The notes: generated by a model from the sequence alone, not told the origin. A DNA stretch of 64,000 bases from a bacterium (GCA_023269085.1 JAHFML010000002.1:65266-129265), one strand, 5' to 3'. Shown: positions 4,235-63,321, numbered from the stretch's first letter. Numbers and translations: made by a program.

Positions 4235-4251
4235 CCAAGGTCGAACCTTGG
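4235..4251. repeat. REP family A palindrome CCAAGGTCGAACCTTGG (singlet)
   Basis: Seen directly in the intergenic region upstream of rpsA; same core as copies at 8059, 8473, 8979, 9175, 31258, 32574, 37918, 58067, 62193. Confidence 0.85.
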
Positions 4252-8058: not shown

Positions 8059-8075
8059 CCAAGGTTCGACCTTGG
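8059..8075. repeat. REP family A palindrome CCAAGGTTCGACCTTGG (with conserved 5' flank TTTTGTCCAAGG)
   Basis: Seen directly, just after the gyrA stop. Confidence 0.85.
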
Positions 8076-8472: not shown

Positions 8473-8489
8473 CCAAGGTTCGACCTTGG
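8473..8489. repeat. REP family A palindrome (same 24-nt TTTTGTCCAAGGTTCGACCTTGGA as copy at 8054)
   Basis: Seen directly, adjacent to RAYT gene end at 8491. Confidence 0.85.
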
Positions 8490-8490
8490 A

Positions 8491-9150
8491 TTAATCAGGG
8501 GCGTAGGTAAGCCACTCGGTGACGAGCTCTTTAAACTCCATGCCAGAATCGAAATATCCAGGCAAGGCATTGGCGGTGAGGATGATATTCTCGGCACGCG
8601 TCTCGCCGAGATAATCGCGATAGCTTGATGGCGCGTATTGCGCGAGATATCGTTCTGCGGCCGCGCGGTCTCTGATCCCCGTCTCTTTCCATTTCTGTTC
8701 GATAATCTTCACTGGGTTGAGATGAATATACGAAACGAGATAGCGCAAATAACGGTCATCCGCGACATGAGTTGCCTTGAACTTCCCTTGGAAGAGGGAG
8801 CCGTTCCGGTCGTTCTTCTTATTGAAATACATCGTATAACCGGTAGTGAGCTTCTGCATGAACTTGCTGATGCCGCCTTCTTGAAGCTCGCGCACGAGGA
8901 GATGGAAATGGTTTGGCATAAGGCAGTACGCAGCAATCTCGACGAGCGGTTCTCCTTCTCGTTTTCCCACCAACTCGTCCAAGGTTCGACCTTGGAGTTT
9001 TAGAACGACAGGAGTGCTTTGGTTCGCAAAATAGAGAAGAGCAAGGAAGCGACGGTAGTCACTTTTGTCTAAGAAGACTTTCCGTTTCTCGGTGCCGCGA
9101 TTGTAAATGTGGTAGTACTCTTCTGGCGCGAATGCGAATGTTCGTTGCAT
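8491..9150 (-). CDS. IS200/IS605-family Y1 transposase, RAYT-like (second paralog), carrying an in-frame REP-A copy
   Basis: YCLMPNHFHLLVRE HuH motif, GSLFQGKFKAT, LRYLVSYI; REP-A at 8979-8995 lies inside the ORF and encodes ...KLQGRTLDEL... Confidence 0.8.
   Translation of the reverse strand: MQRTFAFAPEEYYHIYNRGTEKRKVFLDKSDYRRFLALLYFANQSTPVVLKLQGRTLDELVGKREGEPLVEIAAYCLMPNHFHLLVRELQEGGISKFMQKLTTGYTMYFNKKNDRNGSLFQGKFKATHVADDRYLRYLVSYIHLNPVKIIEQKWKETGIRDRAAAERYLAQYAPSSYRDYLGETRAENIILTANALPGYFDSGMEFKELVTEWLTYAPD
8979..8995. repeat. REP family A palindrome inside RAYT coding sequence
   Basis: CCAAGGTTCGACCTTGG within ORF 8491..9150, frame preserved. Confidence 0.8.
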
Positions 9151-9174: not shown

Positions 9175-9191
9175 CCAAGGTCGAACCTTGG
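9175..9191. repeat. REP family A palindrome (opposite orientation, CCAAGGTCGAACCTTGG)
   Basis: Seen directly just upstream of the RAYT start. Confidence 0.85.
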
Positions 9192-15436: not shown

Positions 15437-15448
15437 CAAAAGTTTTAG

Positions 15449-15536
15449 TGCCGAGGGCGGGAATCGAACCCGCACGAGCCTATTAGAGCTCACGACATTT
15501 TAAGTGTCGAGTGTCTACCAATTTCACCACCTCGGC
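15449..15536 (-). tRNA. tRNA-Leu (anticodon TAA), class II
   Basis: Acceptor GCCGAGG/CCTCGGC, anticodon stem-loop CGACA-CUUAAAA-UGUCG, long variable arm, T-arm GGGTTCGATTCCCGC. Confidence 0.85.
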
Positions 15537-16026
15537 GCACACCCTTATTTCTACCACGATGTGTAGGCTTCAGGCTATGGCAATTTGGGCAGAGAATGCG
15601 AAGATTCTCGAGTCGGTTATCTGAATGATCCCCATTGATATGATCGATCTCTATGGGAACACGTCCATCCTCACTCTGTTCTGCCCAGCCACACTCCTCA
15701 CATTTTGGTTTTTTCAGACCAGCCTTGAATAGCCGCTTCTTTAGTTGATGAATTGAGAAGTGACTATTTGAAATGAGGATTTCTTCAAGCGTGAGAGAAG
15801 GTTTCTTCAGAACGTTCTTGCCCTTACTCCAGCCTTTCCCCAAGAAATGATTAGTGTCGATGCCGTATTCTTCGGCGTATTTTTCGAAGTAACGATAATT
15901 TCCTCCTGCACCGCGCAAATTCATTTTTCCCAGAGCCTCTCGCACACTTTGAGATGAAGCAATTGTCTTTCGCAAGGAGGCTTCTTCCCAGTGGTTCTTG
16001 ATGGCTCTCATGCACACAGTATACAC
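15490..16026 (-). CDS. HNH endonuclease (homing-endonuclease-like); 3' end overlaps tRNA-Leu(TAA)
   Basis: HNH motif EIDHINGDHSDNRLENLRILCPNCH; C-terminal ~15 codons run into the tRNA gene on the same strand, so the true C-terminus is uncertain. Confidence 0.55.
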   Translation of the reverse strand: MYTVCMRAIKNHWEEASLRKTIASSQSVREALGKMNLRGAGGNYRYFEKYAEEYGIDTNHFLGKGWSKGKNVLKKPSLTLEEILISNSHFSIHQLKKRLFKAGLKKPKCEECGWAEQSEDGRVPIEIDHINGDHSDNRLENLRILCPNCHSLKPTHRGRNKGVRRGGEIGRHSTLKMS

Positions 16027-25261: not shown

Positions 25262-26186
25262 ACTTGGACATCGGATGTCCAAGTTTGCGCAACCACGCCT
25301 TCTGGCGGCGAGCGTAGTGCCAGAGTCGGGCCGAGAGAATTGGGAGAAGGGAAGCTTCGTCGCGCTCATTGCGGAGGTACCCGCCAATGATGCGATACTC
25401 GAGCCCGAGCTCGGCGAGCCGCGCGTCGCCGACCTGCTCGCGGACGCGAGCGACCTCGTCGATAAGGCCGCGATCGAGCGCGCTCGCGAGCCGTGCGTCG
25501 ATGCGCGCGCGGAGCTCTTCTCGCGGCGGATCAATCACGATCCACTTCGAGCGATAGCGAGATCCCGAGTCTGTCGAGGGACGATTGCGGCGCGGGACAG
25601 AGCCAAGCGCGTCGATTATCTCGAGAGCGCGGATGAGTCGACGACGGTTGAGCGGGTCGAGCTCGGCGGCGCGACGTGCGTCGGCACGCTGCACCCGCGC
25701 ATACAGCTCTTCGGTCGGGAGCTGTTCGAGCTCGGCGCGAAGGCTCGGATTCGCGTCGACGCTGGCGGGGAGCCCGTGCAGAAGCGCATCAAAATAAAAA
25801 TGCGTCCCGCCCGCGAGGATCGGCAATTTGCCGCGGCTCGTTATCTCTTTGATAAGTCGCGTCGCGTCCTGCACGAAGTCGCCCGCAGAATAGGCATCGC
25901 TCGCGTCACGAATGTCGATAAGGTGGTGTTGCACCCCCTGCATCTCTTCGAGCGTAATCTTCTCGGTGCCGATATCGAGGCCGCGATATACCTGCCGCGA
26001 GTCGACCGAGATTATCTCGCCACCTCGCGCGAGCGCCTCCTGCACCGCGCGCGATGACTTGCCTGAAGCGGTCGGGCCCGCTATGCAGAGGATCCGTTCG
26101 CCAGCAGACTGGCTCAGGACGTCGCTTCGCTCCGTTTGTGCTGTCATTGGGGGCGATGGTATCATATATTGCATACGATTACTCAT
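25224..26186 (-). CDS. miaA: tRNA dimethylallyltransferase
   Basis: P-loop GPTASGKS, DSRQVYRGLDIGT, GGTHFYF; C-terminal tail carries a palindrome. Confidence 0.85.
   Translation of the reverse strand: MSNRMQYMIPSPPMTAQTERSDVLSQSAGERILCIAGPTASGKSSRAVQEALARGGEIISVDSRQVYRGLDIGTEKITLEEMQGVQHHLIDIRDASDAYSAGDFVQDATRLIKEITSRGKLPILAGGTHFYFDALLHGLPASVDANPSLRAELEQLPTEELYARVQRADARRAAELDPLNRRRLIRALEIIDALGSVPRRNRPSTDSGSRYRSKWIVIDPPREELRARIDARLASALDRGLIDEVARVREQVGDARLAELGLEYRIIGGYLRNERDEASLLPILSARLWHYARRQKAWLRKLGHPMSKFISAEPSHRGRS
25260..25286. repeat. Palindrome family C-related 27-nt perfect palindrome AAACTTGGACATCGGATGTCCAAGTTT
   Basis: Sits exactly at convergent gene ends: overlaps TAA of 24617..25261 and the last codons of miaA (encodes ...LGHPMSKF...). 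Confidence 0.8.
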
Positions 26187-30779: not shown

Positions 30780-33206
30780 TTATTTCAAATATTCAGCCGC
30801 TTCAGCGGGAGTGAACGAAGTGGGCGAGACAGACTCGGGGAGATAGATGCGACGGAGACCTTTCTTCAAAAAGAGACCCTGCTTTGATTTGTAGAGCACG
30901 ATAGTCTTGCCGGTCTTGGGGTGCTTACCGATCTCTTGTACGATCTCGACGCCGCGCGGCGGCTGCTTCGGCGCGGCAAGGAGCGCGAGCGCCGTGTCGA
31001 GCGTGACCGTGTAGGGGTCGCCGATCGCGGGCTTGAGCGAGCGGAATTCGCCATCGCTCCCGACGTAGGGGCCGAAGCGGCCGGTCGAAGCGAAAACGGT
31101 TTTGCCGGTGCTTGGGTGCATCCCGAGCTCGCGCGGGAGCGAGAGATAGTGGAGCGCGTCGGCGAGGGTCACCTGCGAGAGGTCGGTGCCGGCGGGGATG
31201 CTCGCGCGCTTGGCGGCAACCTTCGGGCGACCCTTTGCGCGCTTCTTCGGTTTCTTCGATTCAAGGTTCGACCTTGAATCCGAATCCTTAAGGTCGGACC
31301 TTGGTTCGGGTTCGGGCAACGCCATCTCGACATATGGCCCGAAGCGACCCGTCTTGATATAAATAGGCGCGCCAGTCGTCGGGTCATTGCCAATGGGCTC
31401 GTCACCTTTGAGCTCGACGCCCTCTTCGGTGCGCGCACCGAGACAGTCGGGATACTTCTTACAGCTCATGAAGATGCCGCCGCGACCGAGCTTCAGCTCC
31501 ATCGGGCTCCCGCAGAGAGGGCAAGTGAATTCGGGCGACACTTCGCCGAGCGAGGTCGCCTTCGGGAGCTTATCTTTTTCCTTCACCTGTCTCTCAAAGG
31601 GGCCGTAAAATTCGGAGAGCGTCTCCTTGTAGCCGCGCTCGCCGCGCGCGATCTCGTCGAGCTCGTCCTCCATCGTTGCGGTGAAGGAGTCGCTGATGTA
31701 GGTCGCGAAGTTTTCTTCGAGCCAGCCCGAGACGACCATACCGGTCGCCGTCGGCTTCAAGGTGCGGCCGGTCTTCTCGACGTATTCGCGGTCCGAGAGC
31801 GTCTTCATCGTTGAGGCATAGGTCGAGGGGCGGCCGATGCCGCGCTTCTCGAGCTCCTTGATGAGGCCGGCCTCGGTGTAGCGGTTCGGCGGTTCGGTCT
31901 GCTTCTCCTCCTCGCCGAGCGAGAGGAGCGTGAGCGGGTCGCCCTTCGCCACGCGGGGTAATTCGACATCCTCACCCTTCGCTTTCGTGTCGAGTGCGAG
32001 CCAGCCCGGGAAGAGTGTCCGCGAGCCGGTCGCCGCGAAGAGCGGAATGTCGGCATCGGCCTTCGCCGAAATATTCGTTCGCATGATTTTCGCGCTTGCC
32101 ATCTGCGAGGCGAGCGTGCGAACACGGATGAGCTCGTAGAGCGCGTGTTCGTCGGGCGTCGCGCCGGCATGTCCGCATGCGGCATCGGTGGGGCGGATTG
32201 CTTCGTGCGCCTCCTGCGCGTTCTTGCTCGTCGTCTTGTAGGCGCGCGTCTGGGCATACTCTTTACCGAATTCTTGCTCGATGACCGTTATCATTTTCGC
32301 GACGGCTTCGGCACCGAGATTGACCGAGTCGGTGCGCATGTAGGTGATGTGGCCGGCTTCATAGAGCTTCTGTGCGGCCCGCATCGCGCGCGAGGGCGCG
32401 AAGCCGAGACGCGTCGACGCGACCTGTTGGAGCGTCGAGGTGGTGAAGGGCGGACGCGGGGATCGCTCCTCCGCCTTTTCTATAATGTCAGCGACCTGCC
32501 AAGCGGCGGCGCGACCGAGCCTCACGATGCGCCCTGCTTCTTCGCGCGTCGCGGGCTCCTCGACGCAGGTAGTCATCAAGGTCGAACCTTGAACTTCAAG
32601 GTTCGACCTTGATGACGAGAAGGAGGCACGGAGGACGAAATAGGTGACGGGCACGAACGCTTTGATCTCGCGCTCGCGTTCGGCGAGGATCCGGAGCGCG
32701 GGCGATTGCACGCGGCCGGCCGAGAGCCCGTAACGAACTTTCTTCCAGATGAGTCCCGAGAGATCATAGCCGACGATGCGGTCGAGCACGCGCCGCGCCT
32801 CTTGCGCCTGCCGCAAATCTTCGTCGATAGTGCGCGGGTGGGCAAGCGCCTCTTCGATAGCGGCCTTGGTAATCTCGTGGAAGGCGACGCGCTTGGGCTT
32901 CTTCAGCTTCGCCACCTCCTTGATATGCCAGGCGATAGCTTCGCCCTCGCGGTCGGGGTCGGTCGCGAGATACACCTCGTCGGCCTTGGCGGCTGCGGCC
33001 CGTATCTTCTCGATGATCTCCTGCTTCTCGGGCGGGATGATGTAGTGCGGCACGAAGCCGCCCTCGATATCGACCGCATCGATATTGCTCTTGGGCAAAT
33101 CGCGCACATGCCCGACCGAGGCCAAGACCGTGTAGCCTTTCCCGAGGTAGGTGCCGATAGTGCGCGCCTTGGTGGGCGACTCAACGATGAGAAGACGGTT
33201 CGTCAT
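30780..33206 (-). CDS. topA: DNA topoisomerase I, carrying two in-frame REP-A doublet insertions
   Basis: Toprim N-terminus MTNRLLIVESPTKARTI, catalytic domain, C-terminal zinc ribbons (CPLCGSPM...); insertions encode ...SSSRSNLEVQGSTLMTT... and ...RSDLKDSDSRSNLES... Confidence 0.9.
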   Translation of the reverse strand: MTNRLLIVESPTKARTIGTYLGKGYTVLASVGHVRDLPKSNIDAVDIEGGFVPHYIIPPEKQEIIEKIRAAAAKADEVYLATDPDREGEAIAWHIKEVAKLKKPKRVAFHEITKAAIEEALAHPRTIDEDLRQAQEARRVLDRIVGYDLSGLIWKKVRYGLSAGRVQSPALRILAEREREIKAFVPVTYFVLRASFSSSRSNLEVQGSTLMTTCVEEPATREEAGRIVRLGRAAAWQVADIIEKAEERSPRPPFTTSTLQQVASTRLGFAPSRAMRAAQKLYEAGHITYMRTDSVNLGAEAVAKMITVIEQEFGKEYAQTRAYKTTSKNAQEAHEAIRPTDAACGHAGATPDEHALYELIRVRTLASQMASAKIMRTNISAKADADIPLFAATGSRTLFPGWLALDTKAKGEDVELPRVAKGDPLTLLSLGEEEKQTEPPNRYTEAGLIKELEKRGIGRPSTYASTMKTLSDREYVEKTGRTLKPTATGMVVSGWLEENFATYISDSFTATMEDELDEIARGERGYKETLSEFYGPFERQVKEKDKLPKATSLGEVSPEFTCPLCGSPMELKLGRGGIFMSCKKYPDCLGARTEEGVELKGDEPIGNDPTTGAPIYIKTGRFGPYVEMALPEPEPRSDLKDSDSRSNLESKKPKKRAKGRPKVAAKRASIPAGTDLSQVTLADALHYLSLPRELGMHPSTGKTVFASTGRFGPYVGSDGEFRSLKPAIGDPYTVTLDTALALLAAPKQPPRGVEIVQEIGKHPKTGKTIVLYKSKQGLFLKKGLRRIYLPESVSPTSFTPAEAAEYLK
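31258..31304. repeat. REP family A doublet inside topA (GATTCAAGGTTCGACCTTGAATC ... AAGGTCGGACCTTGG)
   Basis: Two inverted REP units ~10 bp apart; reading frame of topA preserved. Confidence 0.85.
32574..32614. repeat. REP family A doublet inside topA: 41-nt perfect palindrome CATCAAGGTCGAACCTTGAAcTTCAAGGTTCGACCTTGATG
   Basis: Seen directly; frame preserved. Confidence 0.9.
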
Positions 33207-37160: not shown

Positions 37161-38186
37161 ATGTCATTCTGGCAGAAACTCCCGAAACCTTTTTTCGTCA
37201 TGGCGCCGATGGCAGATGTCACCGATGCCGCCTTCCGCGCGCTTATCGCGAGCCGCGCTGCGCCCGACGTTTTCTGGACCGAGTTCGTCTCGGCCGACGG
37301 GCTCTATCACACCCGCGAGATCGCACGGATGCCGGACAATGAGAACCCACTCATGCGCGACCTTTTGAAGAGCAGTGCGGAGCGGCCGATAGTCGCGCAG
37401 ATATTTTCAAACAAGCCGGAGATGATCGCGTATGCGACGCGCGTGGTTGCTGACCTTGGCTTCGACGGCGTCGATCTCAACATGGGCTGCCCTGATAGAG
37501 CGATAGAGCGGCAGGGGAGCGGTGCCGCGATGCTGAAGTCGCCGGAGGTAGCCCGCGCGGTAATCCGCGCGGCGAAGGGTGCGAGTAGCTTGCCCGTCAC
37601 GGTCAAGACGCGTGTCGGGTATAATCGCGAATCGCTCGATGAGTGGCTGCCCGTCTTGCTCGAAGAAGCGCCGGCCGCTATCACGCTGCACCTGCGCACA
37701 CGCAAAGAGTTGTCGCTCGTACCCGCGCAGTGGGAGCTCATGAAGAGGGCGGTCGCTCTTCGCGATAGCCTCAATCCTGACGTACTCCTTATCGGTAACG
37801 GCGATGTGACGAGTGTTGAGCAGGGTAAGCGGCTTGTCGATGAGACCGGTTGCGATGGCGTCATGATCGGCCGCGGCATGTTCGGCAATCCGTGGGTCTT
37901 TGAGGGATTGACGCGCACACCAAGGTCGGACCTTCGGTCCGAATTCTCAAGGTCCGACCTTGGTGTGCGCGAACATGGGCTCTCCGAAAAGCTCGAAGCT
38001 TTAGTTGAGCTCGCGCATAACTTCGAGAAGCTCTTGCCGCCCAAAAATTTCTCCATACTCAAGAAGCACATCAAAGCCTTTGCCACGGGCTTCGACGGCG
38101 CTGCCGATCTCCGCGCGCGCCTTATGCTCGCCGACTCTGCTACTGAGCTCGAAGGGATTGTTGCAGAATACGTAGATGGAGCGTAA
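37161..38186 (+). CDS. tRNA-dihydrouridine synthase (DusB-like) with an in-frame REP-A doublet insertion
   Basis: FFVMAPMADVTDAAFR, LNMGCP, TIM-barrel FMN motifs; insertion encodes ...LTRTPRSDLRSEFSRSDLGVRE... Confidence 0.85.
   Translation: MSFWQKLPKPFFVMAPMADVTDAAFRALIASRAAPDVFWTEFVSADGLYHTREIARMPDNENPLMRDLLKSSAERPIVAQIFSNKPEMIAYATRVVADLGFDGVDLNMGCPDRAIERQGSGAAMLKSPEVARAVIRAAKGASSLPVTVKTRVGYNRESLDEWLPVLLEEAPAAITLHLRTRKELSLVPAQWELMKRAVALRDSLNPDVLLIGNGDVTSVEQGKRLVDETGCDGVMIGRGMFGNPWVFEGLTRTPRSDLRSEFSRSDLGVREHGLSEKLEALVELAHNFEKLLPPKNFSILKKHIKAFATGFDGAADLRARLMLADSATELEGIVAEYVDGA
37918..37965. repeat. REP family A doublet inside dus gene: 48-nt hairpin CACCAAGGTCGGACCTT-cggtccgaattctc-AAGGTCCGACCTTGGTG
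   Basis: Seen directly; loop contains GAATTC as in the uvrB copy. Confidence 0.9.
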
Positions 38187-38544: not shown

Positions 38545-39576
38545 ATGGCTCACCAGTCGCTCTATCGCACGCATCGCCCAGCAACCTTTGCCGAGGTCGT
38601 GGGTCAAGAGCAGGTGACGCATCCGCTCGAGGAGGCGGTGAAGGCCGGGAAGATCGGCCACGCGTATCTCTTCGCCGGCAGTCGCGGTTTGGGCAAGACC
38701 AGCGTGGCGCGCATCTTCGCCGCCGCTATCGGCTGTGGCGAGCGCGATCTCTACGAGGTCGATGCCGCGAGCAACAACAGCGTCGAGGACATCCGTGCGC
38801 TCAGCGAGGGCGTCTACACTTTGCCTTTCGCGTCGCCGTATAAGGTCTACCTGCTCGATGAGGTGCACATGCTGAGCAAGGGCGCGTGGAATGCTTTTTT
38901 AAAAACGCTTGAGGAGCCGCCCGCGCATGCGGTCTTTATCCTCGCGACGACCGAGCTCGAGAAGGTTCCCGAGACCGTGCAGTCGCGCTGCCAGATTTTC
39001 GAATTCAAGAAGCCGACGCGCAAGGTGCTCGCCGAGATGACGGCGAAGGTCGCAAAGAAGGAGGGCTACACGCTCGAGAGCGACGCCGCCGAGCTCGTCG
39101 CGCTCTTGGCCGATGGCTCGTACCGCGATGCGCTCTCTATCTTGCAAAAGGTCGTTACGGGAACAGAAGAAAAAACCGTTTCGCGCCCGAGGGTCGAAGA
39201 GGTGACTGGCGCACCGCGGCAGAGCCAGGTGCAGGCGCTTGTCGCCGCGCTCGCCTCTGGCTCGCGCGCCACCGCACTTGTCGCTATCGAAGAAACCGCG
39301 CGCTCGGGCACCGACATGAAGCTCTACCTTGAGCTCGTGCTCTCGGCGTTGCGCTCAATACTGCTCATTCGCTATGCGCCCGACCTGCGCGCATCAATCA
39401 TGGCCGAGCTCGGTGCGGACGAATTCTCCGCCCTCGAAGAGATTGTAGGACTTACGAAGTCCCACATAACGCATGCGACACTTCTCGCCTTCCTCACCGC
39501 CGCCGATCGCATCCGCTATGCGCCCATCCCTGCGCTCCCGCTCGAGCTCGCGGTCTTGGAGCTCTTCCCCGAATGA
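38545..39576 (+). CDS. dnaX: DNA polymerase III subunit gamma/tau (short form)
   Basis: Walker A GSRGLGKTS, DEVHMLS, SKGAWNAFLKTLEEPP, sensor SRCQ; 343 aa. Confidence 0.85.
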   Translation: MAHQSLYRTHRPATFAEVVGQEQVTHPLEEAVKAGKIGHAYLFAGSRGLGKTSVARIFAAAIGCGERDLYEVDAASNNSVEDIRALSEGVYTLPFASPYKVYLLDEVHMLSKGAWNAFLKTLEEPPAHAVFILATTELEKVPETVQSRCQIFEFKKPTRKVLAEMTAKVAKKEGYTLESDAAELVALLADGSYRDALSILQKVVTGTEEKTVSRPRVEEVTGAPRQSQVQALVAALASGSRATALVAIEETARSGTDMKLYLELVLSALRSILLIRYAPDLRASIMAELGADEFSALEEIVGLTKSHITHATLLAFLTAADRIRYAPIPALPLELAVLELFPE

Positions 39577-40271
39577 ACGGCGACTCATTCCGTATCGCGC
39601 TCGCGGGAGTCGCGCTCGTCGTCGCGGCGGGCGGCGTGTATCTCAAATATGAAGACATGAAGCCCTGCGTGCATCCGCTGCCCTACGCTATCGGGGCGGT
39701 CGATGCGCGCTTTGACACGACCGCGGCGACAGTCGAGCGAGAAGCCCTCGCTGCCGCGACAATCTGGAACACGGCAGAGGGGAAGCCACTCCTCGCCTAT
39801 GACACTCACGCCGCGCTCAAGATCAATCTCATCTACGACGAACGCGAGGCGAGCGCCAAGCAGGGAGAAGACATCGCGCGCGCTCAAGCCGCGCTCGAGA
39901 GCGAGCGAGCGATGATAGAGGCAGAGCGCACAGCAGGCAATGTGTCCCCGAACACCTTCAACGCGCAGGTCGCGAGCTATAACGCGAGCATCGCCTCGCT
40001 GAACGCGCGCGTGAGCGACTACAACAAGAGCGCCGGTCACGACTTCAAAGAAGGCGAGTATATCCAAGACGCGTCGGGCAAGCGCATCAACGTCTACGAA
40101 TTCATCGGCACCAATCAGCTCGAACGCGTCCTCGCGCACGAGCTCGGTCACGCCCTCGGCCTCGATCACAACAGCGACCCCGCCTCGATCATGTACGCCG
40201 AGAACGAGAGCGGCAACCTCGTCCCCACTACTGCCGACCTCGCCGCGCTCCGCGCCCTCTGCGGGTCGTAA
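39573..40271 (+). CDS. Membrane-anchored zinc metalloprotease, matrixin (M10)-like
   Basis: HELGHALGLDHNSDPASIMY = HExxHxxGxxH + Met-turn; N-terminal TM; ATGA overlap with dnaX. Confidence 0.7.
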   Translation: MNGDSFRIALAGVALVVAAGGVYLKYEDMKPCVHPLPYAIGAVDARFDTTAATVEREALAAATIWNTAEGKPLLAYDTHAALKINLIYDEREASAKQGEDIARAQAALESERAMIEAERTAGNVSPNTFNAQVASYNASIASLNARVSDYNKSAGHDFKEGEYIQDASGKRINVYEFIGTNQLERVLAHELGHALGLDHNSDPASIMYAENESGNLVPTTADLAALRALCGS

Positions 40272-40339
40272 TCTGGAGATATCAACATACGAACAAATAG
40301 ATGTAGGCTATAGATTTCATGTCGTGCTAGTATAGTTTT

Positions 40340-41041
40340 GTGTTAGCTTTACCGAAAGAAAAAGCGCGTGCCGTACAGCTTCGCAAACAAGGTAAAACCT
40401 ATGGAGAAATTGCAAAGCAAATTCTGGTTTCTAAATCAACGCTTTCTCTTTGGTTGCGAGATGTTGAAGTGTCAGCAGAGTTTCTCTCTCGTATCCGACA
40501 AAAGAAATTAGATGCGGTCAAGAAGGGTTGGGAGGCGCGCAGGAAGGAGCGTATCGATCGAACGAAGCAGATTACTGATGCGGCACGAGAAGAAGTCTCG
40601 AAATTTTATAAACAGCCACTCTGGCTCGTTGGCGTAACTCTTTACTGGGCTGAAGGACATAAAGAAAAATCTTGGCGTCCGGGGGCACTCGTGACTTTCA
40701 CCAACATGGACGAAAATACGATAATTATCTTCAGAAATTGGTGTCGTAAATATATGGATGTCTCGGACGGTGATTTTGTTTACAGCCTCTATGTTCATGC
40801 TACTCACGAAATGCGGACGTTAGAAATAAAACAATGGTGGGCACGCAAACTCTCAATAAACCCTGATAGCATCGCCGTTTATTACAAGAAACATACAACA
40901 AAACACGTGCGTCATAATGACGACGATAACTATCATGGGGTTTGTCGTGTTCGTGTGAGGAAGAGTGTGGATATGAATCGGAGAATTGCTAGTTGGACAT
41001 CCGAAATGGTACGTTCACTGGAGGACAAAAATAAGCTATGA
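40340..41041 (+). CDS. Hypothetical HTH-domain protein (low-GC islet; possible homing-endonuclease-like)
   Basis: N-terminal HTH (TYGEIAKQILVSKSTLSLWLRD); ...LWLVGVTLYWAEGHK... faintly LAGLIDADG-like; clearly lower GC. Confidence 0.4.
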   Translation: MLALPKEKARAVQLRKQGKTYGEIAKQILVSKSTLSLWLRDVEVSAEFLSRIRQKKLDAVKKGWEARRKERIDRTKQITDAAREEVSKFYKQPLWLVGVTLYWAEGHKEKSWRPGALVTFTNMDENTIIIFRNWCRKYMDVSDGDFVYSLYVHATHEMRTLEIKQWWARKLSINPDSIAVYYKKHTTKHVRHNDDDNYHGVCRVRVRKSVDMNRRIASWTSEMVRSLEDKNKL

Positions 41042-41063
41042 TAGAGCCACTCGTGCTCACCGC

Positions 41064-41134
41064 TGGGGGATCGTCTAATGGTAGGACGACGGGTTTTGGT
41101 CCCGTTAATTTAGGTCCGAGTCCTAATCCCCCAG
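41064..41134 (+). tRNA. tRNA-Gln-like (anticodon TTG), atypical
   Basis: Manual fold: acceptor TGGGGGA/TCCCCCA with G73 (U1:A72/G73 as in E. coli tRNA-Gln), 3-bp D-stem, anticodon loop UUUUGGU, T-arm TTAGG-TCCGAGT-CCTAA; an alternative 8-9 bp acceptor register exists. Confidence 0.55.
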
Positions 41135-41260
41135 CAGTGTGCAGGAGACTCTAGGATCGTTCCCTAGCTCCCCAGCAAAGTCGTGCGAGGTTATCTCGCA
41201 CAAGACGCGTCAAATGGATGAGTTACTCAGAATATTGATATATGAGTTAGAATAAGCCCA

Positions 41261-42229
41261 ATGGAACAATTTTCTCATGCGCAAAAAGAATCTGGAATAA
41301 ACCGAGTTGTCGGATTCGATGCAGGACAGGAGAAAAAATTCTTACAGTATTTCAAAGATAAGTTTGAAACCAGATCTCCTGATTCAGGAGATAAAGAAAA
41401 AACATCCGAACAAGTGGCGCTGATTGACCGCACCAATAAGGAGATGCGAGATTTCTTGGCACGGTACAATATCAATGCCGTTGAGATCCCGGCGGATAAT
41501 GTTCATATACTCGATCGGTCGAAACTTACGCAAGAAGAACTTCGAGAGATTCAAAAAAGATTTGGCACTGAGAGTGGATTCTACTCAGCCTTTAAGCAAG
41601 GCGTCGCGATTATGAAAGATTACGATGTAAGCAAATTGTCGTTTCTGCAAACTCTTGTCCACGAGTCGCTCCATCTTCAGGGATTTTATTCGTATCAAAA
41701 GAGTTCTCGAGAGACTGCCGATTTTAGCGTGAAAAACGAAGATAACTCGGCAAGTTTGAACATCCGACGATCAGGATTCTCTATCGGCACAAAAGATGGT
41801 AAAAGACGGCTCTTCCATGAGATTAATGAATCTATTATCACGGAGCTACAAATTCGATTCGAGAACGCATACCTCGCGCAGTGGCCAGAGCTGAAAGAAG
41901 AATTAAAAGCTCGCGATGCCTGTATCGAACGAGTCGCAAAACGAGACAACGCACCAATAGAAGAAATACGGAAGGTTGTAGCGAGTTTCTCTGGATACGC
42001 ATGGGTAACCTATCCCTATAACGACGAGCGCCAGGAGTTTAATTCTCTGGTCGATGAGTTGTATACGAGAAACCAATCAGATTTTGAATCGCGAGAAGAT
42101 GTCTTTAATTTATTTGTTGAAGCAACAATGAATGGTCGTCTTCTCCCTGTCGCACGACTCATTGAGAAGACATTCGGTAAGGGAACATTTAGGACAATTG
42201 GTGTGAACAGTGCGAATAAGCACGACTAG
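41261..42229 (+). CDS. Hypothetical protein (low-GC islet; contains HESLH motif)
   Basis: ORF 322 aa; LVHESLHLQG could be an HExxH zinc site but no further support. Confidence 0.4.
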   Translation: MEQFSHAQKESGINRVVGFDAGQEKKFLQYFKDKFETRSPDSGDKEKTSEQVALIDRTNKEMRDFLARYNINAVEIPADNVHILDRSKLTQEELREIQKRFGTESGFYSAFKQGVAIMKDYDVSKLSFLQTLVHESLHLQGFYSYQKSSRETADFSVKNEDNSASLNIRRSGFSIGTKDGKRRLFHEINESIITELQIRFENAYLAQWPELKEELKARDACIERVAKRDNAPIEEIRKVVASFSGYAWVTYPYNDERQEFNSLVDELYTRNQSDFESREDVFNLFVEATMNGRLLPVARLIEKTFGKGTFRTIGVNSANKHD

Positions 42230-49765: not shown

Positions 49766-50101
49766 ATGAAATTACTTTTCAAATGGTTCATCGCGACGGT
49801 CGCTATCGGCATCGCCGCCCACATCGTCCCGGGCGTCAGCGTTACGCCGACCAGCGCTCTGATCGCGGCCGTCGTCCTTGGCGCGCTCAATCTCTTCATC
49901 CGACCGATTCTCCTCATTCTCACGCTTCCGATTACCATCATCACGCTCGGACTCTTTTCGCTTGTCGTGAACGCGCTTCTTGTCCTCCTTGTCGCGCTCG
50001 TCGTGCCGGGCTTCTCGGTCGCGGGGTTCTGGCCTGCGCTCCTCTTCGCGTTCGTCCTCGCTCTCGTCAATTGGGTCTTCCACTTCTGGACGCATAGTTA
50101 G
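49766..50101 (+). CDS. Phage-holin-family-4-like (DUF360) small membrane protein
   Basis: FIATVAIGIAAHIVPGVSV...LGALNLFIRPILLILTLPITIITLGLFSLVVNALLVLLVALVVPGF matches the 4-TM holin/DUF360 pattern; start ATG 49766. Confidence 0.6.
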   Translation: MKLLFKWFIATVAIGIAAHIVPGVSVTPTSALIAAVVLGALNLFIRPILLILTLPITIITLGLFSLVVNALLVLLVALVVPGFSVAGFWPALLFAFVLALVNWVFHFWTHS

Positions 50102-50118
50102 GACATCCAGTGTCCTAA
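50098..50118. repeat. Palindrome TTAGGACA-tccag-TGTCCTAA (family C-related GGACA/TGTCC core)
   Basis: Seen directly, overlapping the holin-like stop codon. Confidence 0.7.
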
Positions 50119-52571: not shown

Positions 52572-55328
52572 ATGGAGAATCTGCCGCGGCTATCGACGCC
52601 TGAAGATGAACTCGCGTATCTGCGAGCGAAGGTCGCCGAGCAGGAGGCGGCGCTCACGCAAGCGGGGGGCGCGCCCGAGCGCGCGCAGATTATTAGCGAG
52701 CACGTGAGCGCGCATCACGCCGCGCCGCGCGAGATACTCGCGCCCGAATATCAGATGAGCGCGGCGACCGCGACGAGCGAAGCCGAGGCAATCCTAGCCG
52801 AGCTCGATCTCGGCGGGAGCGAGGCGGCGGTGCGGAGCCTCGAGAAGACGATGGACGAAAAGGGCATCAAGAACGCACTCGCTATCCTCGAGCGAACCGG
52901 CGATCCGCATCTCGCCGACGACTTTCATCGCTTCCTGGTGCGCTATATCGCCGCCGGCCTGCCAGTCTTGGGTGCTGACGAGAAGGCGCCGCGCTGGCGC
53001 GCACTCCACATGACGCTTTATGAAATCGCGCTCCAGGGGCCAAAGGCGGGCGAGGACGCACGCAAGCCCTTGAAGGAGCTTATCTCGAGCATGGAACAGC
53101 TCTATGCCGGCATGCTCTCGGTCGAGACGGCGACGTCGGGCGAGCCGCAGTACATCGCGCTCGAGCTCGCGGTGCCGGCTGATAGCCCTGAGCTCCAGTT
53201 CTATGCCGCCGTGCCGAACAGTAAGCGCAATCTCTTTGAGAAGCAGCTCCTCGCCATCTTCCCCGATGCGCACCTTGTCCCGCAGATGGCCGACTATAAC
53301 ATCTTCGCCGAGGGCGGGACGGCGCTTGTCTCAGTTGCGAAGCAGGCCGAGCGCCCTGCACTCCCGCTGAAGGACTACAGCGACTTCGACTATGACCCGA
53401 TAAATACGGTGATGAACGCTTTTGCGAAGATTGAGCATAAAGGCGAAGGCGCGGCGCTCCAGATTATCATCGAGCCAAGGGGCGAGCAGTATGTGAAGCA
53501 CTATCGCAAGATCTTGCAGGCCTTGCGCAAGGGTGTGCGCAAGGGTGAAGCATTCGGCATTGCAGAGACCGCCGTCGGCGAAGTCTTCCAAGACCTCGGT
53601 AAAAAACTCTTCTCGGATAGTTCAAAAGATAAAGAGAAGGAGAAGGAGGCCGAGGCGCGCGGTGCCGAAGCGAACAAGTCGACTATCGAACAAGTCGAGA
53701 AGAAGATCGCCGCTCCTGTCGTCGCGGCGACCATCCGCCTCGCCGCCTCCTCGCGCAATGCAAATGTCGCGAGTCAAGTGCTCGGCGATCTCGAGGCGTC
53801 GTTCAACCAATTTTCAAATACGCAGGGGAATCGCCTTGAGTTCACCCGCACTGATGCAAAGCATAGCGCGCGCGAGCTTGAAGATTTCTCCTTTCGTTTG
53901 CCCGCAGACAAAACGCTCCCGCTCTCGCTTCGTGAGCTCACGACGCTCTACCACTTCCCGCCGTCCGGCATTATGAGCTCGCCCCATTTGAAGCAGTCGC
54001 GCTTCACCCACGCACCCGCGCCGCTCGCGCTCCCCGCGGCGGGGAATCTTCTCGGTATCAATTCGTATCGCGGCGCGACTACCGAGATCCGCCTCGCGCC
54101 TGAAGACCGTCTCCGCCATCTCTACATCATCGGCCAGACCGGCACCGGTAAGACCGGTCTCATGAAGAGCATGATTATTCAAGATATTAAGAATGGCGAG
54201 GGTTGCTGCTATATCGACCCGCACGGCTCCGACATCCTTGATGTGCTCGCGGCCGTCCCGCCCGAGCGGTATAAGGATGTGATTTATTTCGACCCGGCCG
54301 ATCTCTCGCGCCCCTTCGGGCTCAACTTCCTCGAGTACGACTTCTCGCGCCCCGAGCAGAAGACCTTCATCGTGAACGAGCTCCTCATGATATTCCGTCG
54401 GCTCTATGGCGACGTGCCCGAGAGCATGGGCCCCGCATTCGAACAATACTTCCGCAATGCGACGCAGCTCGTGATGGAGGATCCCTCGAGCGGCTCGACG
54501 ATGATGGATATCGCGCGCGTCTTCACCGATAGCGAGTTCCGCAAGCAGAAGCTCGCCAAGAGCATGAACCCTATCATCAACCAGTTCTGGCAGGAGATAG
54601 CGACCAAGGCCGGTGGCGACGCGTCGCTCGAGAACATCGTCCCCTATATCACCAACAAGTTCGACGACTTCACTGCGAACGACTTCATCCGCCCGATCGT
54701 CGGCCAGCAAGAATCCTCCTTCAAGTTCCGCGAGGTGATGGACTCGAAGAAGATACTGCTCGTCAATCTCTCGAAGGGGCGTTTGGGCGAGCGGAACGCG
54801 AACCTGCTCGGTCTTGTCATCGTAGGCAAGCTCTTCATGGCGGCCTTGTCGCGCGCCGATAACCCTCGCGCCGCCTTCGCGCCCTTCTATCTCTACATCG
54901 ACGAATTCCAAAATGTCACCACCGACTCTATCCCCGGCATTCTCTCGGAGGCGCGCAAGTATAAGCTCTCCCTCGCGATGGCGCACCAATTTTTGAATCA
55001 GATAGAAGAGAAGACGCGCAGCGCGGTCTTCGGCAACGTCGGCAACATGGCGATATTCCGCGTCGGCGAGGAGGACGCGGAGTTCTTCGCGAAGCAATTC
55101 GCGCCGGTCTTCGAGCCGCTCGACTTCGTAAATATCGAGAATAGAAATGCCTATGTGAAGATTCTCACGGGCGGCGTGCCGCAGAAGCCCTTCGACATGA
55201 AGACGCCCGACCTGCCGCAGGGGAGCCCCGAGCAGGTTGATGATCTCATCCACCTCTCCAGCCTGACCTATGGCCGCGACCGTGCTACTATTGAGACCAT
55301 GATTCGCGAACGATATTTATCTCACTAA
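52572..55328 (+). CDS. Large P-loop NTPase of the FtsK/HerA/VirD4-TrwB (T4SS coupling/VirB4-like) type
   Basis: Walker A HLYIIGQTGTGKTGLM (cf. TrwB GATGTGKS), Walker B FYLYIDEFQN, LAMAHQ; ~470-aa soluble N-terminal domain without TM; 918 aa. Confidence 0.65.
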   Translation: MENLPRLSTPEDELAYLRAKVAEQEAALTQAGGAPERAQIISEHVSAHHAAPREILAPEYQMSAATATSEAEAILAELDLGGSEAAVRSLEKTMDEKGIKNALAILERTGDPHLADDFHRFLVRYIAAGLPVLGADEKAPRWRALHMTLYEIALQGPKAGEDARKPLKELISSMEQLYAGMLSVETATSGEPQYIALELAVPADSPELQFYAAVPNSKRNLFEKQLLAIFPDAHLVPQMADYNIFAEGGTALVSVAKQAERPALPLKDYSDFDYDPINTVMNAFAKIEHKGEGAALQIIIEPRGEQYVKHYRKILQALRKGVRKGEAFGIAETAVGEVFQDLGKKLFSDSSKDKEKEKEAEARGAEANKSTIEQVEKKIAAPVVAATIRLAASSRNANVASQVLGDLEASFNQFSNTQGNRLEFTRTDAKHSARELEDFSFRLPADKTLPLSLRELTTLYHFPPSGIMSSPHLKQSRFTHAPAPLALPAAGNLLGINSYRGATTEIRLAPEDRLRHLYIIGQTGTGKTGLMKSMIIQDIKNGEGCCYIDPHGSDILDVLAAVPPERYKDVIYFDPADLSRPFGLNFLEYDFSRPEQKTFIVNELLMIFRRLYGDVPESMGPAFEQYFRNATQLVMEDPSSGSTMMDIARVFTDSEFRKQKLAKSMNPIINQFWQEIATKAGGDASLENIVPYITNKFDDFTANDFIRPIVGQQESSFKFREVMDSKKILLVNLSKGRLGERNANLLGLVIVGKLFMAALSRADNPRAAFAPFYLYIDEFQNVTTDSIPGILSEARKYKLSLAMAHQFLNQIEEKTRSAVFGNVGNMAIFRVGEEDAEFFAKQFAPVFEPLDFVNIENRNAYVKILTGGVPQKPFDMKTPDLPQGSPEQVDDLIHLSSLTYGRDRATIETMIRERYLSH

Positions 55329-57554: not shown

Positions 57555-58070
57555 ATGAATCCGATCCAGACTGGTATCGCTACCGCCCTCGCGCTCGTCG
57601 TTGTCGCCGTTTTCTTCTTCTTCCCGAGCTTGCTCCCCTTTGGCCAATCGGCACCGACAGAGCCAGCACAGGTGAGCGTCGCCGCTACCACTAATCAACA
57701 ACTAGCTTCAACCACTATGCCAACAGAAAATGTTACCGATCTCCAGATAACCGACGAGACCATCGGCACTGGCGCCGTCGCCGCCGCGGGCGACACCGTT
57801 ACGGTCAACTATGTCGGTGCGCTCACGAACGGTACCGTCTTTGACGCTTCGGCGAATCACGGCTCGACCGGCTTCACCTTCCCGCTTGGGGCAGGGCAGG
57901 TTATCAAGGGTTGGGACATGGGCGTCGCAGGGATGAAGGAGGGTGGCAAGCGCAAGCTCGTCATCCCGGCCTCGCTTGCCTATGGCGACCGCGCGGTAGG
58001 GAATGTCATCCCGGCAAGTGCGACGCTCATCTTCGAGGTCGAGCTCGTGAAGGTGCAGAAAGGGAAGTAA
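57555..58070 (+). CDS. FKBP-type peptidyl-prolyl cis-trans isomerase (membrane-anchored/secreted)
   Basis: GDTVTVNYVGALTNGTVFDAS...FTFPLGAGQVIKGWDMGVAGMKEGGKRKLVIPASLAYG FKBP signature. Confidence 0.9.
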   Translation: MNPIQTGIATALALVVVAVFFFFPSLLPFGQSAPTEPAQVSVAATTNQQLASTTMPTENVTDLQITDETIGTGAVAAAGDTVTVNYVGALTNGTVFDASANHGSTGFTFPLGAGQVIKGWDMGVAGMKEGGKRKLVIPASLAYGDRAVGNVIPASATLIFEVELVKVQKGK

Positions 58071-58119
58071 CCAAGGTTCGACCTTAAGAAATTTGGGCCA
58101 AAGGTCGAACCTTGGTTAC
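58067..58119. repeat. REP family A doublet forming a 19-bp-stem hairpin GTAACCAAGGTTCGACCTT-loop-AAGGTCGAACCTTGGTTAC
   Basis: Starts inside the FKBP stop codon; a second GC hairpin terminator follows. Confidence 0.9.
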
Positions 58120-61214: not shown

Positions 61215-63321
61215 CTTCAAACTCCACACTCCCTACCAGCCGGCAGGCGACCAGCCGGCGGCTATCGCGGCGCTCGAGAGCGGACTCGAGGCGGGCATGC
61301 GCCATCAGACGCTCTTTGGCGTGACGGGCTCGGGCAAGACCTTCACCATCGCGAACGTCATCGCAGCGCATGACAAGCCGACCCTCGTCCTCGCACACAA
61401 CAAGACCCTCGCGGCCCAGCTCGCGCAAGAGTATCGCGAATTCTTTCCCGAGAACGCCGTCCACTATTTTGTCTCTTACTACGACTACTATCAGCCCGAG
61501 GCCTATATCGCGCACTCCGACACCTACATCGAGAAGGAAGCAATGATAAACGCCGAGATTGATCGCCTCCGCCACGCGGCAACGCAAGCGCTTCTCACGC
61601 GCAAGGACGTCATCATCGTCGCGTCGGTCTCGGCGATCTACGGGCTTGGCTCGCCGGCAGAATATGAGAAGGTGCACGTGAAGATTGAGAAGGGCGCCGC
61701 GGAGGATCGCGCGGCGCTGATCCGCAAGCTCGTGGGTATCCACTTCGAACGCACGCCTGCCGACTTGAACCCTGGTCAGGTGCGCGCTATCGGGAACTCG
61801 CTCGAGCTGATGCCGGTCAACGAGCGCGTTATCTATCGCGTCGCTTTCGAGGGCGACACGATTGTGCGCATTGATCAGCTCGACCCGATCTCGCGCGCAC
61901 TTGTCGCGTCGCCCTCGTCTATTTTCATATTTCCCGCGAAGCACTTCATCACGAGCGAAGCAGAGCGGGTACGCGCGATCGAGGACATCAAGCTCGAACT
62001 CGATGGGCAATTGGCGAAGTTCAAGAGGGAAGCGAAGCCGCTTGAAGCCGAACGCTTGAAACGCCGCACCTTGAGCGACCTCGCGCTCATCCGCGAGATG
62101 GGTTATACCAACGGTATCGAAAATTATTCGCGCCACTTCGACGGTCGCAAGAGCGGCGAGCCGCCCTTCACGCTTCTTTCATACTTCCCACACCGGAATC
62201 AAGGTCGAACCTTACATACGAATTCTCAAGGTTCGACCTTGATTCCGGATTTCCTTACCATCATCGACGAGTCTCACGTGACGGTCCCGCAGCTCGGCGG
62301 CATGTACGCGGGCGATCGCTCACGCAAGGACGTGCTCGTCGAATACGGCTTCAGGCTCCCTTCGGCGCGCGACAATCGGCCGCTCAACTTCGAAGAGTTC
62401 GAAGAGCGTGTTGGGCAGGTTATCTATACGAGCGCAACGCCGGGCCCCTATGAGCGCGCACATGCTGAGCAGGTAGTCGAGCAAGTCATCCGCCCGACGG
62501 GCCTCATCGACCCGGAGCTCGTCATCCGCCCGGTGTCTGGGGAGGCGGGTGGACACCTAGTGTCCACCCATTTAGACACTAGGTGTCCACCCGCCTCCTA
62601 TCGCGGGCAGGTGGCGAACTTTATCAGTGAAGCCGAGGTCGTCATCAAGCGCGGCGGCCGCGCGCTCGCAACCACGCTCACCAAGCAGATGGCCGAAGAC
62701 CTCTCCTCATTCTTGCGCGAGAAAGGTATAAAAGCCGAGTATCTCCACTCTGACGTGAAGACGATCGACCGCATCGACATCCTCACCAAGTTCCGCAAGG
62801 GCGAGTTCGATATTCTCGTCGGCGTCAACCTGCTTCGCGAAGGACTCGACTTGCCCGAGGTCGAGCTCGTCGGCATCCTCGACGCGGACAAAGAAGGCTT
62901 CTTGCGCAGTGAGACCTCGCTCATCCAGACTATCGGCCGTGCCGCGCGCAACGTGCTCGGCCGCGTGATTCTCTATGCCGACGTGATGACCAAGTCGCTC
63001 GAGAAGGCTATTGGCGAGACCAATCGCCGCCGCGCGCTCCAAGTGGCCTACAACGAGAAGCACAGCATCACGCCGAAGACGATTCACAAAGAGATTCGCG
63101 ACATCGCTGCGAGCATGCGGAGCGACCACCAGAAGACGATTGACGAACTTCTGGTGCTCGACACGCTCGCGTACAAGGATGATCCGAAGGCTTTTGTCGC
63201 GCGTAAGCGAGAGGAGATGGCCGAAGCGGTCGAGAAGCTCGACTTCGAAACCGCCGCGCTTATTCGCGACGAGCTCTTCAAGCTTGAGGACGGCGGGTCG
63301 AAAGGGAAGAAGAAACGGTAA
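61207..63321 (+). CDS. uvrB: Excinuclease ABC subunit B with two in-frame palindrome insertions
   Basis: Walker A GVTGSGKTFT, helicase motifs, C-terminal UvrB/UvrC-interaction helix (LIRDELFKLE); start moved to ATG 61207; insertions encode ...HRNQGRTLHTNSQGSTLIPD... and ...GEAGGHLVSTHLDTRCPPASYRG... Confidence 0.9.
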   Translation: MANFKLHTPYQPAGDQPAAIAALESGLEAGMRHQTLFGVTGSGKTFTIANVIAAHDKPTLVLAHNKTLAAQLAQEYREFFPENAVHYFVSYYDYYQPEAYIAHSDTYIEKEAMINAEIDRLRHAATQALLTRKDVIIVASVSAIYGLGSPAEYEKVHVKIEKGAAEDRAALIRKLVGIHFERTPADLNPGQVRAIGNSLELMPVNERVIYRVAFEGDTIVRIDQLDPISRALVASPSSIFIFPAKHFITSEAERVRAIEDIKLELDGQLAKFKREAKPLEAERLKRRTLSDLALIREMGYTNGIENYSRHFDGRKSGEPPFTLLSYFPHRNQGRTLHTNSQGSTLIPDFLTIIDESHVTVPQLGGMYAGDRSRKDVLVEYGFRLPSARDNRPLNFEEFEERVGQVIYTSATPGPYERAHAEQVVEQVIRPTGLIDPELVIRPVSGEAGGHLVSTHLDTRCPPASYRGQVANFISEAEVVIKRGGRALATTLTKQMAEDLSSFLREKGIKAEYLHSDVKTIDRIDILTKFRKGEFDILVGVNLLREGLDLPEVELVGILDADKEGFLRSETSLIQTIGRAARNVLGRVILYADVMTKSLEKAIGETNRRRALQVAYNEKHSITPKTIHKEIRDIAASMRSDHQKTIDELLVLDTLAYKDDPKAFVARKREEMAEAVEKLDFETAALIRDELFKLEDGGSKGKKKR
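62193..62248. repeat. REP family A doublet inside uvrB: 21-bp-stem hairpin CCGGAATCAAGGTCGAACCTT-acatacgaattctc-AAGGTTCGACCTTGATTCCGG
   Basis: Seen directly. Confidence 0.9.
62541..62597. repeat. Palindrome family B composite (two GGTGGACAC/GTGTCCACC units, outer arms GGAGGCGGG/CCCGCCTCC) inside uvrB
   Basis: GGAGGCGGGTGGACACCTAGTGTCCACCCatttaGACACTAGGTGTCCACCCGCCTCC. Confidence 0.85.

Follow-up and report, generated by a model that had tools for sequence, protein, structure and literature searches.

A REP-type hairpin read in frame in the tRNA-dihydrouridine synthase gene of a Kaiserbacteria-like bacterium, and a candidate transposase for its family

Introduction

Patescibacteria have genomes of ~1 Mb, which are thought to have been stripped of non-essential DNA. 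What is a perfect palindrome doing inside an intact gene of such a genome, and how did it come to be there? The question is raised by dus, the gene for a tRNA-dihydrouridine synthase (Dus), in the 64,000-nt stretch of bacterial DNA that we analysed and call the window (GCA_023269085.1, JAHFML010000002.1:65266-129265). The window belongs to a Paceibacterota/Kaiserbacteria-like lineage of the Patescibacteria, or candidate phyla radiation (CPR). We conclude, with a probability of about 0.8, that the dus hairpin is a REP doublet forming a hairpin (REPIN), in which two inverted 13-nt repetitive extragenic palindromic (REP) units enclose a conserved 14-nt spacer, and that it is part of a system of REPs and REP-associated tyrosine transposase (RAYT) in this Kaiserbacteria-like CPR genome.

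Results

dus carries a perfect palindrome in frame

A preliminary description of this locus, made from the DNA alone, placed a 48-nt hairpin at 37918-37965. The hairpin is there, but this interval is only the inner part of a 60-nt perfect inverted repeat, which a repeat finder resolves into two 23-nt arms (37912-37934 and 37949-37971) that are 100% complementary and enclose a 14-nt spacer (Table 1). The region 37900-37980 reads ...GGATTGA CGCGCACACCAAGGTCGGACCTT cggtccgaattctc AAGGTCCGACCTTGGTGTGCGCG AACATGGG... As originally proposed, the structure is a doublet of inverted REP units, the left one being AAGGTCGGACCTT and the right one its exact reverse complement, AAGGTCCGACCTT, and its loop, the spacer CGGTCCGAATTCTC, contains GAATTC. 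A 74-nt segment folds with an energy of -50.5 kcal/mol as RNA (z = -8.9) and of -32.2 kcal/mol as DNA (z = -10.0).

The hairpin is in frame and leaves dus unbroken, as had also been noted: the open reading frame (ORF) is continuous, reads through the hairpin as ...TRTPRSDLRSEFSRSDLGVRE..., and the Pfam Dus match extends across it. An example of the peptide encoded by the insert is TPRSDLRSEFSRSDLGVR. An assembly artefact was rejected, since the identical Dus protein was recovered from several independent sources, namely NCBI, European Nucleotide Archive (ENA) and Logan assemblies, on four contigs. Translational bypass, an intron or an intein was likewise rejected because the ORF is continuous, the gain of 17 aa keeps to a multiple of three and there is no in-frame stop.

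Within the protein, the insert occupies about residues 250-270, between GNPWVF, at the end of the TIM (triosephosphate isomerase) barrel, and the C-terminal helical domain. Most Dus orthologues, which are 321-326 aa long, read GNPWVFAGRKxEDTPLAEKL in this region, and the stretch from GNPWVF to EKL is 17 residues longer in the window protein. The structural mapping that had been suggested gives the same answer: alignment to Thermotoga maritima Dus (1VHN) puts the site directly after the PWIF motif closing the TIM barrel. In an AlphaFold model, built from a shallow alignment and with a mean predicted local distance difference test score (pLDDT) of 67, residues 238-271 have a pLDDT <50 and no secondary structure, and lie between a strand (233-235) and a helix (274-289). 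On the basis of the 1VHN alignment and this model, the insert lies in the interdomain linker, in a segment predicted to be disordered. The residues that are invariant among Dus orthologues are all kept in the window protein. Homologues of this Dus come from metagenome-assembled genomes of Paceibacterota, Kaiserbacteria and Minisyncoccia, and the gene order serS, hypothetical gene, dus, dnaX is conserved.

The dus hairpin belongs to a family of defined doublets

The 13-nt unit of the dus hairpin, which has the form AAGGT-NNN-ACCTT and defines what we call family A, is abundant in the window, where it occurs 15 times. With one mismatch allowed, the core AAGGTCGGACCTT has 18 matches versus 0.04 expected, a number reached in 0 of 100 shuffles. 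The family-A tally comprises five doublets (two in topA and one each in dus, uvrB and an essentially intergenic position) and five single units of the form (G)TCCAAGGTYSRACCTTGGA, starting at 4237, 8061, 8475, 8981 and 9177. The 13-nt cores are 14-15 nt apart in four of the doublets and 7 nt apart in the fifth. Aligning the five window doublets with ten copies from related genomes (alignment A3, 15 copies) yields a 42-nt master element, C-AAGGTNNNACCTT-AAATCCGAATTCTC-AAGGTNNNACCTT-G. Its spacer (AAAYCCGAATTCTC) is conserved between unrelated genes and between species, and the doublet is therefore a defined unit. This bears out the view of the preliminary description that the doublets in dus, uvrB, topA and the intergenic copy form one family, and that the dus and uvrB copies have a common architecture (in uvrB, 21-nt arms around the 14-nt spacer ACATACGAATTCTC). 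The same description took unrelated loops and flanks as a mark of independent hairpins; the loops prove to be shared, whereas the outer 5-10 bp are copy-specific.

These outer base pairs extend the stem beyond the master by 5-10 complementary bases that differ from copy to copy (CGCGCACAC in dus, CCGGAAT in uvrB, GTAAC in the intergenic doublet and GTCAT in topA), and for this reason the transposed unit is not the whole hairpin. Pairing is nonetheless strict. The arms are paired in 99.1% of the cells of A3, and the few imperfect pairs are of the G-U type on the strand as aligned. The central triplet of the unit differs between copies (CGA/TCG, CGG/CCG, TAA/TTA, CAG/CTG) and is always mirrored within a doublet; cells changed on both arms number 29, versus 12 +/- 3 in shuffles, none of 500 of which matches the observed value.

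Both the perfectly complementary outer arms, specific to each copy, and the mirrored triplets are what would be expected if doublets were made in place, a single REP and its flank being copied in inverted orientation by fold-back or template switching during replication. The flanks of dus offer a further hint of this. In three related loci (L003, L004 and L013), the left outer arm (GGGCTGAC-like) encodes the G-L-T of an F-E-G-L-T flank, and the window has the same peptide (GGATTGAC) outside the palindrome, the right arm being an inverted copy. Such a local origin is decidedly unlikely all the same. The 14-nt spacer is conserved across unrelated genes and species, so it moves together with the element, as a random loop formed locally would not, and the spacing of the units, 13-14 nt, is nearly constant. 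Fold-back may account for the extension of the stem, not for the source of the doublet.

The 42 nt of the master, a multiple of three, correspond to 14 codons and are stop-free in three of the six frames. The frames used by the doublets encode RS(D/N)L... or QG(R/S)TL... peptides. Family A departs from classical REPs in location and in lacking a tag. Intact ORFs (dus, uvrB, topA twice and the transposase gene RAYT-1 described below) contain one single unit and all but one of the five doublets, which are thus not extragenic, and the single units, which read (G)TCCAAGG...CCTTGGA, have no GTAG or CGTC tag. Other classes of element were considered. A known RNA family was rejected because Rfam, scanned at gathering thresholds over the whole window, gave seven tRNAs and nothing else. 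A miniature inverted-repeat transposable element was rejected for lack of direct target-site duplications; the two flanks of each copy are complementary in inverted orientation, and the element measures 42-60 nt versus the usual 70-300 bp. The density of the motif also brought to mind a DNA uptake sequence or an operator, which is unlikely given the link to a RAYT and the fact that the elements are insertions relative to orthologues.

A RAYT-type gene is bracketed by family-A units

What strengthens the label REP, which the preliminary description had used for these units, is a RAYT-type Y1 gene bracketed by single family-A units in the same window, 29 kb from the dus hairpin (Table 1). Its product, RAYT-1, matches Pfam Y1_Tnp (E = 1.3e-10, 41.9 bits for a cut-off of 23), and its top NCBIfam match, below the equivalog cut-off, is NF047646, REP-associated tyrosine transposase (E = 1.9e-13). 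The sole match in the PDB, a weak one, is 4ER8, the E. coli TnpA-REP, with which the NHFHLL and YIHLNPVK motifs align. Residues H81, H83 and Y141 are invariant among 16 sequences.

Bracketing of this kind is common among RAYT-1 homologues. A scan of metagenome contigs provided 80 loci at 44-71% identity, out of at least 567 candidates, and we compared the 130 nt upstream with the 130 nt downstream at the 71 loci for which both flanks were available. The two flanks share an 11-mer or longer at 62 of these 71 loci; when flanks were taken from different loci as a control, the shared length had a mean of 3.4 and a maximum of 9. What the flanks have in common is a palindrome of this type, particular to the locus (e.g., TACAAGGTTCAACCTTGTA, CCAAGGTCGGACCTTGG and GCGAAGGAGGGTCCTTCGC). 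A RAYT and its cognate REPs are defined by just such bracketing. RAYT-1 is the candidate mobilising enzyme for family A.

RAYT-1 also has a family-A unit in its own ORF, near codon 52, where it encodes LQGRTL. In roughly 24 of 81 homologues, this position is taken by a REP that matches the REPs on the flanks of the same locus; the count is approximate because the automatic comparison mis-scored doublet-flanked loci, which were judged by eye. In L093, for instance (from the set of loci L088-L167), the internal REP encodes REGLTF and reads GTGAAGGTTTAACCTTCAC. This internal REP may be an autoregulatory site, or a sign that REPs are rewritten at fixed positions.

A second RAYT-like gene, RAYT-2, lies at 1681-2391 on the minus strand and encodes 236 aa, with a Y1_Tnp match of 3.4e-7 and ~40% identity to RAYT-1 over 138 aa. 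A palindrome of its own, GTATCGAAGTC-N-GACTTCGATAC, lies on either side (1650-1676 and 2408-2438), with a third unit at 3058-3072; the upstream copy at 2408-2438 reads GTAG...CTAC. Searching 85 Dus-centred loci with both RAYTs by tblastn revealed no further RAYT within +/-10 kb of dus.

The insertion sites are old and their content changes between species

Comparison of species shows how the Dus site is used. Among ~73 distinct loci, 53 have no insert and ~17 have a clear hairpin. Family A is present at seven loci (the window, L003, L004, L013, L015, L020 and L022), the relatives concerned having Dus proteins that are 58-79% identical; the spacers of L003, L004 and L013 read GAGAATTCGGATTT or nearly so, and the window spacer is inverted relative to these. 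Other loci have other palindromes at the very same site: family B, with GGACTTCGTAAGTCC-type units and a 12-nt spacer, at five loci; family C, with GGACATCGGATGTCC-type units, at four; and family D, another palindrome, at one. The insert-bearing genes have flanks in common (..GGnATTTCA / GGGCTGAC on the left and ..CATGGGCT, encoding H-G-L, on the right). They fall into about three clusters, each with more than one family, in a rough neighbour-joining tree of Dus, a grouping that is only a hint given the short internal branches of this tree. The Dus alignment (A1) contains lineage-specific inserts elsewhere too, such as SDFNTNSRSLTSTF after TREVLK and PTSLGSSEGHG before NPLM, which have the appearance of further insertions of this kind, at other permissive sites.

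These comparisons bear on whether it is the inserted peptide that is selected, as restoring a longer interdomain linker in Dus, with the DNA palindrome being incidental. The linker of insert-free Kaiserbacteria-like Dus is indeed unusually short by comparison with that of T. maritima Dus, and the insert-bearing genes have common downstream residues, xH(G/S)L. We nevertheless give this explanation very little credence: the peptides are unrelated between species (RSDLRSEFSRSDL, GLRKS..GFTKS, GHRMSSSEVGHPMS) and the DNA hairpins are always perfect, one DNA unit is read in two frames in different genes, and the region has low predicted order.

As for uvrB, the copy in the window can be followed in a relative whose UvrB is 86% identical (L168), which reads CCGGAACC-AAGGTCGAACCTT-ACATCCGAATTCTC-AAGGTTCGCCCTT-GGTTCCGG, and the window reads CCGGAATC-...-ACATACGAATTCTC-...-GATTCCGG. 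The two have the site, the spacer and the copy-specific outer arm in common and differ by one compensatory change, T:A to C:G; judged by these sequences, they are clearly orthologous. At the same site, two other UvrB proteins (P0134 and P0140) encode NQGRTLNPNSQGSTL, which is the master read in frame +0, and P0122, the closest UvrB relative (93% identical), has a different insert, KNIGTYDVPILV, as seen at the protein level. UvrB has a second insert site, a hot spot (window 62541-62598, columns ~490-520 of alignment A4), at which many orthologues have differing inserts of 12-25 residues and others none. In the window, this site holds a hairpin with arms at 62541-62564 and 62575-62598, of a different palindrome family, GGACAY-N3-RTGTCC.

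For topA, the first site is filled by a family-A doublet in L004 and is empty in L005. Many species have family-A doublets in ORFs the size of topA, and also in the ORF that directly precedes dus, the latter copies having their own common spacer variant (ACAGCAAGTTCCTC-like).

The recent transposition suggested by the preliminary description is not upheld by these data, since other Kaiserbacteria-like species have related hairpins, with compensatory changes, at the same places in dus, uvrB and topA. Occupancy of the three sites is, by this comparison, old, and the perfect match of the arms is therefore no sign of youth. This match most likely results from correction templated by the hairpin, or from selection on the hairpin, rather than from recent insertion.

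Selection on the hairpin could in principle go further, the whole structure being a cis-acting one that slows ribosomes at the Dus domain boundary or governs how stable the mRNA is, or else a DNA site for a host protein. Persistence at orthologous dus, uvrB and topA sites with compensatory changes would be in keeping with this, as would the high stability as RNA, the position exactly on the domain boundary, and imperfect A3 pairs that are few and of the G-U type. These mismatched pairs are, in turn, too few to tell a constraint on RNA from one on DNA, and the comparison of loci makes a cis-acting role unlikely. Most orthologous dus genes (53 of ~73) do without an insert, the hairpin families that occupy the Dus site in different species are unrelated, and the same units are found between genes, flanking a transposase gene and within unrelated proteins. 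That no Rfam family matches the hairpin also speaks against it.

Table 1. Positions in the 64,000-nt window of dus, its hairpin, RAYT-1 and the other family-A elements
Feature	Position	Strand	Basis or remark
Host gene dus, tRNA-dihydrouridine synthase, 341 aa	37161..38186	+	Pfam Dus E = 2.4e-56, residues 14-329
REP doublet (REPIN) in dus	37912..37971		perfect palindrome, 23-nt arms, 14-nt spacer; folding
Left REP unit AAGGTCGGACCTT of dus doublet	37922..37934	+	motif search
Spacer CGGTCCGAATTCTC of dus doublet	37935..37948	+	GAATTC inside; matches family consensus AAATCCGAATTCTC
Right REP unit AAGGTCCGACCTT of dus doublet	37949..37961	+	exact reverse complement of left unit
RAYT-1, HUH/Y1 transposase, REP-associated type, 219 aa	8491..9150	-	HUH motif NHFHLL; catalytic-type tyrosine in SYIHLNPVK
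Family-A single unit GTCCAAGGTTCGACCTTGGA	8475..8487		3 nt beyond RAYT-1 stop codon
Family-A single unit within RAYT-1 ORF	8981..8993		in frame, ..LKLQGRTLDEL..
Family-A single unit	9177..9189		26 nt upstream of RAYT-1 start codon
Family-A doublet in uvrB	62193..62248		in frame (..NQGRTLHTNSQGSTLI..), 21-nt arms; orthologous to L168 copy, judged by sequence
Family-A doublet, topA site 1	32572..32616		in frame; 7 nt between 13-nt cores; site filled in L004
Family-A doublet, topA site 2	31258..31307		slightly degenerate; in frame, C-terminal linker
Family-A doublet, essentially intergenic	58067..58119		first four bases overlap last codon and stop codon of FKBP gene
Family-A single unit, intergenic	4237..4249		motif search
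Family-A single unit	8061..8073		directly past gyrA stop codon

Other repeats and features of the window

The GGACAY-N3-RTGTCC palindromes mentioned for uvrB form a third family, with 8 units in the window (18997-19035, 25266-25280, 50101-50115, 60312-60326, 60986-61028 and 62551-62598). They are mostly in frame within genes, namely an aminotransferase class-V gene, miaA, tgt and the second uvrB site, and no matching transposase was seen in the window. Units of this type are found at the dus site in L009, L023, L025 and L035. A single GGACTTACGAAGTCC unit is inside dnaX (39448-39462), and the same type is present at the dus site in L006, L007, L019 and L077.

Beyond these repeats, four tRNA genes are clustered on both strands (15218-15536), the last of which (15449-15536) is overlapped by the 3' end of an HNH-endonuclease ORF on the minus strand (15490-16026, 178 aa). 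GC content dips to 0.46 at 40001-42000, versus about 0.58 elsewhere, in a segment with a gene that has a weak HTH_23 match and a tRNA (41064-41134); this segment could be an integrated element. An imperfect inverted repeat here (41050-41071 and 41126-41147) has arms that overlap both ends of the tRNA and probably corresponds to its stems. Finally, two small ORFs resemble type IV secretion pilins (11101-12247), and a 918-aa protein has a DUF8128 domain and a weak TraG-D_C match (52572-55328).

Discussion

How, then, would a REPIN come to reside in dus? By analogy with the E. coli TnpA-REP and its REPINs, the RAYT would recognise the hairpin in single-stranded DNA and mobilise it, and copies that break genes would be lost. 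The dus copy would be a tolerated passenger: the length of the master is divisible by three, half of its frames are open, and this copy landed in a permissive linker, which would be why it survived with the frame kept. Its insert would be translated into a disordered loop. For the copy-specific stems and their strict mirroring, the simplest idea is hairpin-templated correction, by template switching within the palindrome. The replacement of one family by another at a single site might be RAYT-mediated exchange at existing hairpins, which is speculative.

Several observations weigh against reading the hairpin as a REPIN of a REP/RAYT system. RAYT-1 scores 50.5 bits with NF047646, under the equivalog cut-off of 80, and its match to 4ER8 is weak (E = 0.28). 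The GTAG or CGTC tag by which the described REP superfamilies are marked is missing from family A, and four of its five doublets are within genes, unlike classical REPINs, which are extragenic. If a fixed element were moved by simple cut-and-paste, this would not explain the outer 5-10 bp, which are specific to each copy yet perfectly complementary, and the Dus site, which holds family B, C or D in other species, must have been re-used or had its content replaced. The comparison of species shows presence, absence and replacement of hairpins, not mobility itself, and that the insert is translated is something we infer.

Some of these observations can be brought together by a bolder idea, which we hold tentatively and consider rather doubtful on balance: REP hairpins in streamlined CPR genomes might occupy fixed slots, often linkers in essential genes, whose content is repeatedly rewritten. 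We leave this open because the families in dus and uvrB differ by species, the arms match perfectly and the internal REP of RAYT genes co-varies with the flanking REPs. If true, it would mean RAYT-dependent replacement or correction of one REP by another, a site-specific exchange at hairpins and not random transposition, and possibly autoregulation of RAYT through its internal REP.

The reading of the dus hairpin as a REPIN has consequences for the way in which CPR proteins are read. With little intergenic space in these genomes, most surviving doublets are in housekeeping genes, where they naturally mark the linkers of Dus, UvrB, TopA and other proteins that are permissive. REP inserts inflate protein lengths, and lineage-specific inserts could pass for functional novelties of CPR proteins. 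The hundreds of RAYT homologues with matched flanking, and often internal, REPs are a covariation dataset for the recognition of hairpins by RAYTs.

Among known systems, the closest is that of REPs, REPINs and bacterial interspersed mosaic elements (BIMEs) with their RAYTs, or TnpA-REP, together known as REPtrons (Nunvar 2010; Bertels & Rainey 2011, PMC3116915; Messing 2012, PDB 4ER8), in which the E. coli TnpA-REP handles REP hairpins as single-stranded DNA in vitro (PMC3116915; PDB 4ER8). The likeness consists in short palindromic units present in many copies, inverted pairs that, at a fixed short distance, build a larger hairpin, an HUH/Y1 gene with these units on both sides, and orthologous positions kept across species. 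The system described here differs in having units of 13-19 nt versus 20-40 nt, no GTAG/CGTC tag, four of five doublets inside genes, copy-specific outer stems, a RAYT that is divergent (50.5 bits for a cut-off of 80) and longer (219 aa versus 165 aa for the 4ER8 chain), and a Patescibacteria genome as host.

REPs inside genes have been described by Di Nocera, De Gregorio & Rocco (2013, PMC3733652). More than half of theirs are dimers or groups encoding 20-30 residues, genes for replication and repair, uvrA and uvrB among them, are frequent hosts, the insertions were read as tolerated, and the Rickettsia palindromic elements (RPEs) RPE-4 and RPE-6 of R. conorii correspond to intragenic REP elements (PMC3733652). 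The elements reported here resemble these in being in-frame REP dimers of ~20-30 residues, with uvrB among the hosts. Those earlier elements are, however, GTAG/CGTC-tagged and come from Opitutus, Thauera, Rickettsia and others, whereas here the family, the phylum and the RAYT clade are different and the sites are occupied across many species with turnover of families.

Classical RPE-1 elements are about 100-150 bp long and confined to Rickettsia, and we know of no transposase associated with them. RPEs (Ogata et al. 2000/2002, as cited in PMC3733652) are similar to the dus insert as palindromic repeats in frame, at permissive sites, in intact protein genes of a reduced genome. They differ from the present elements, which are 42-60 nt long, are found in a Paceibacterota/Kaiserbacteria-like lineage and have a RAYT candidate in the window; size and lineage set the two apart. 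Mitochondrial genomes have mobile hairpin and double-hairpin elements and GC clusters (e.g., the repetitive hairpin elements, RHEs, of sponges; PMC2800124), which are alike by description only, as small hairpin repeats spreading in a compact genome; they are organellar, unrelated in sequence and have no known transposase.

In the literature within reach, we found no report that pairs REP-associated tyrosine transposases or in-frame palindromic insertions with Patescibacteria, Parcubacteria or CPR, and REP/RAYT systems appear to exist in Patescibacteria. Intragenic REP dimers as such are already known; what is different here is the phylum, the very small unit, the absence of a tag, the divergent and longer RAYT, the high fraction of doublets inside genes and the re-use of sites between species.

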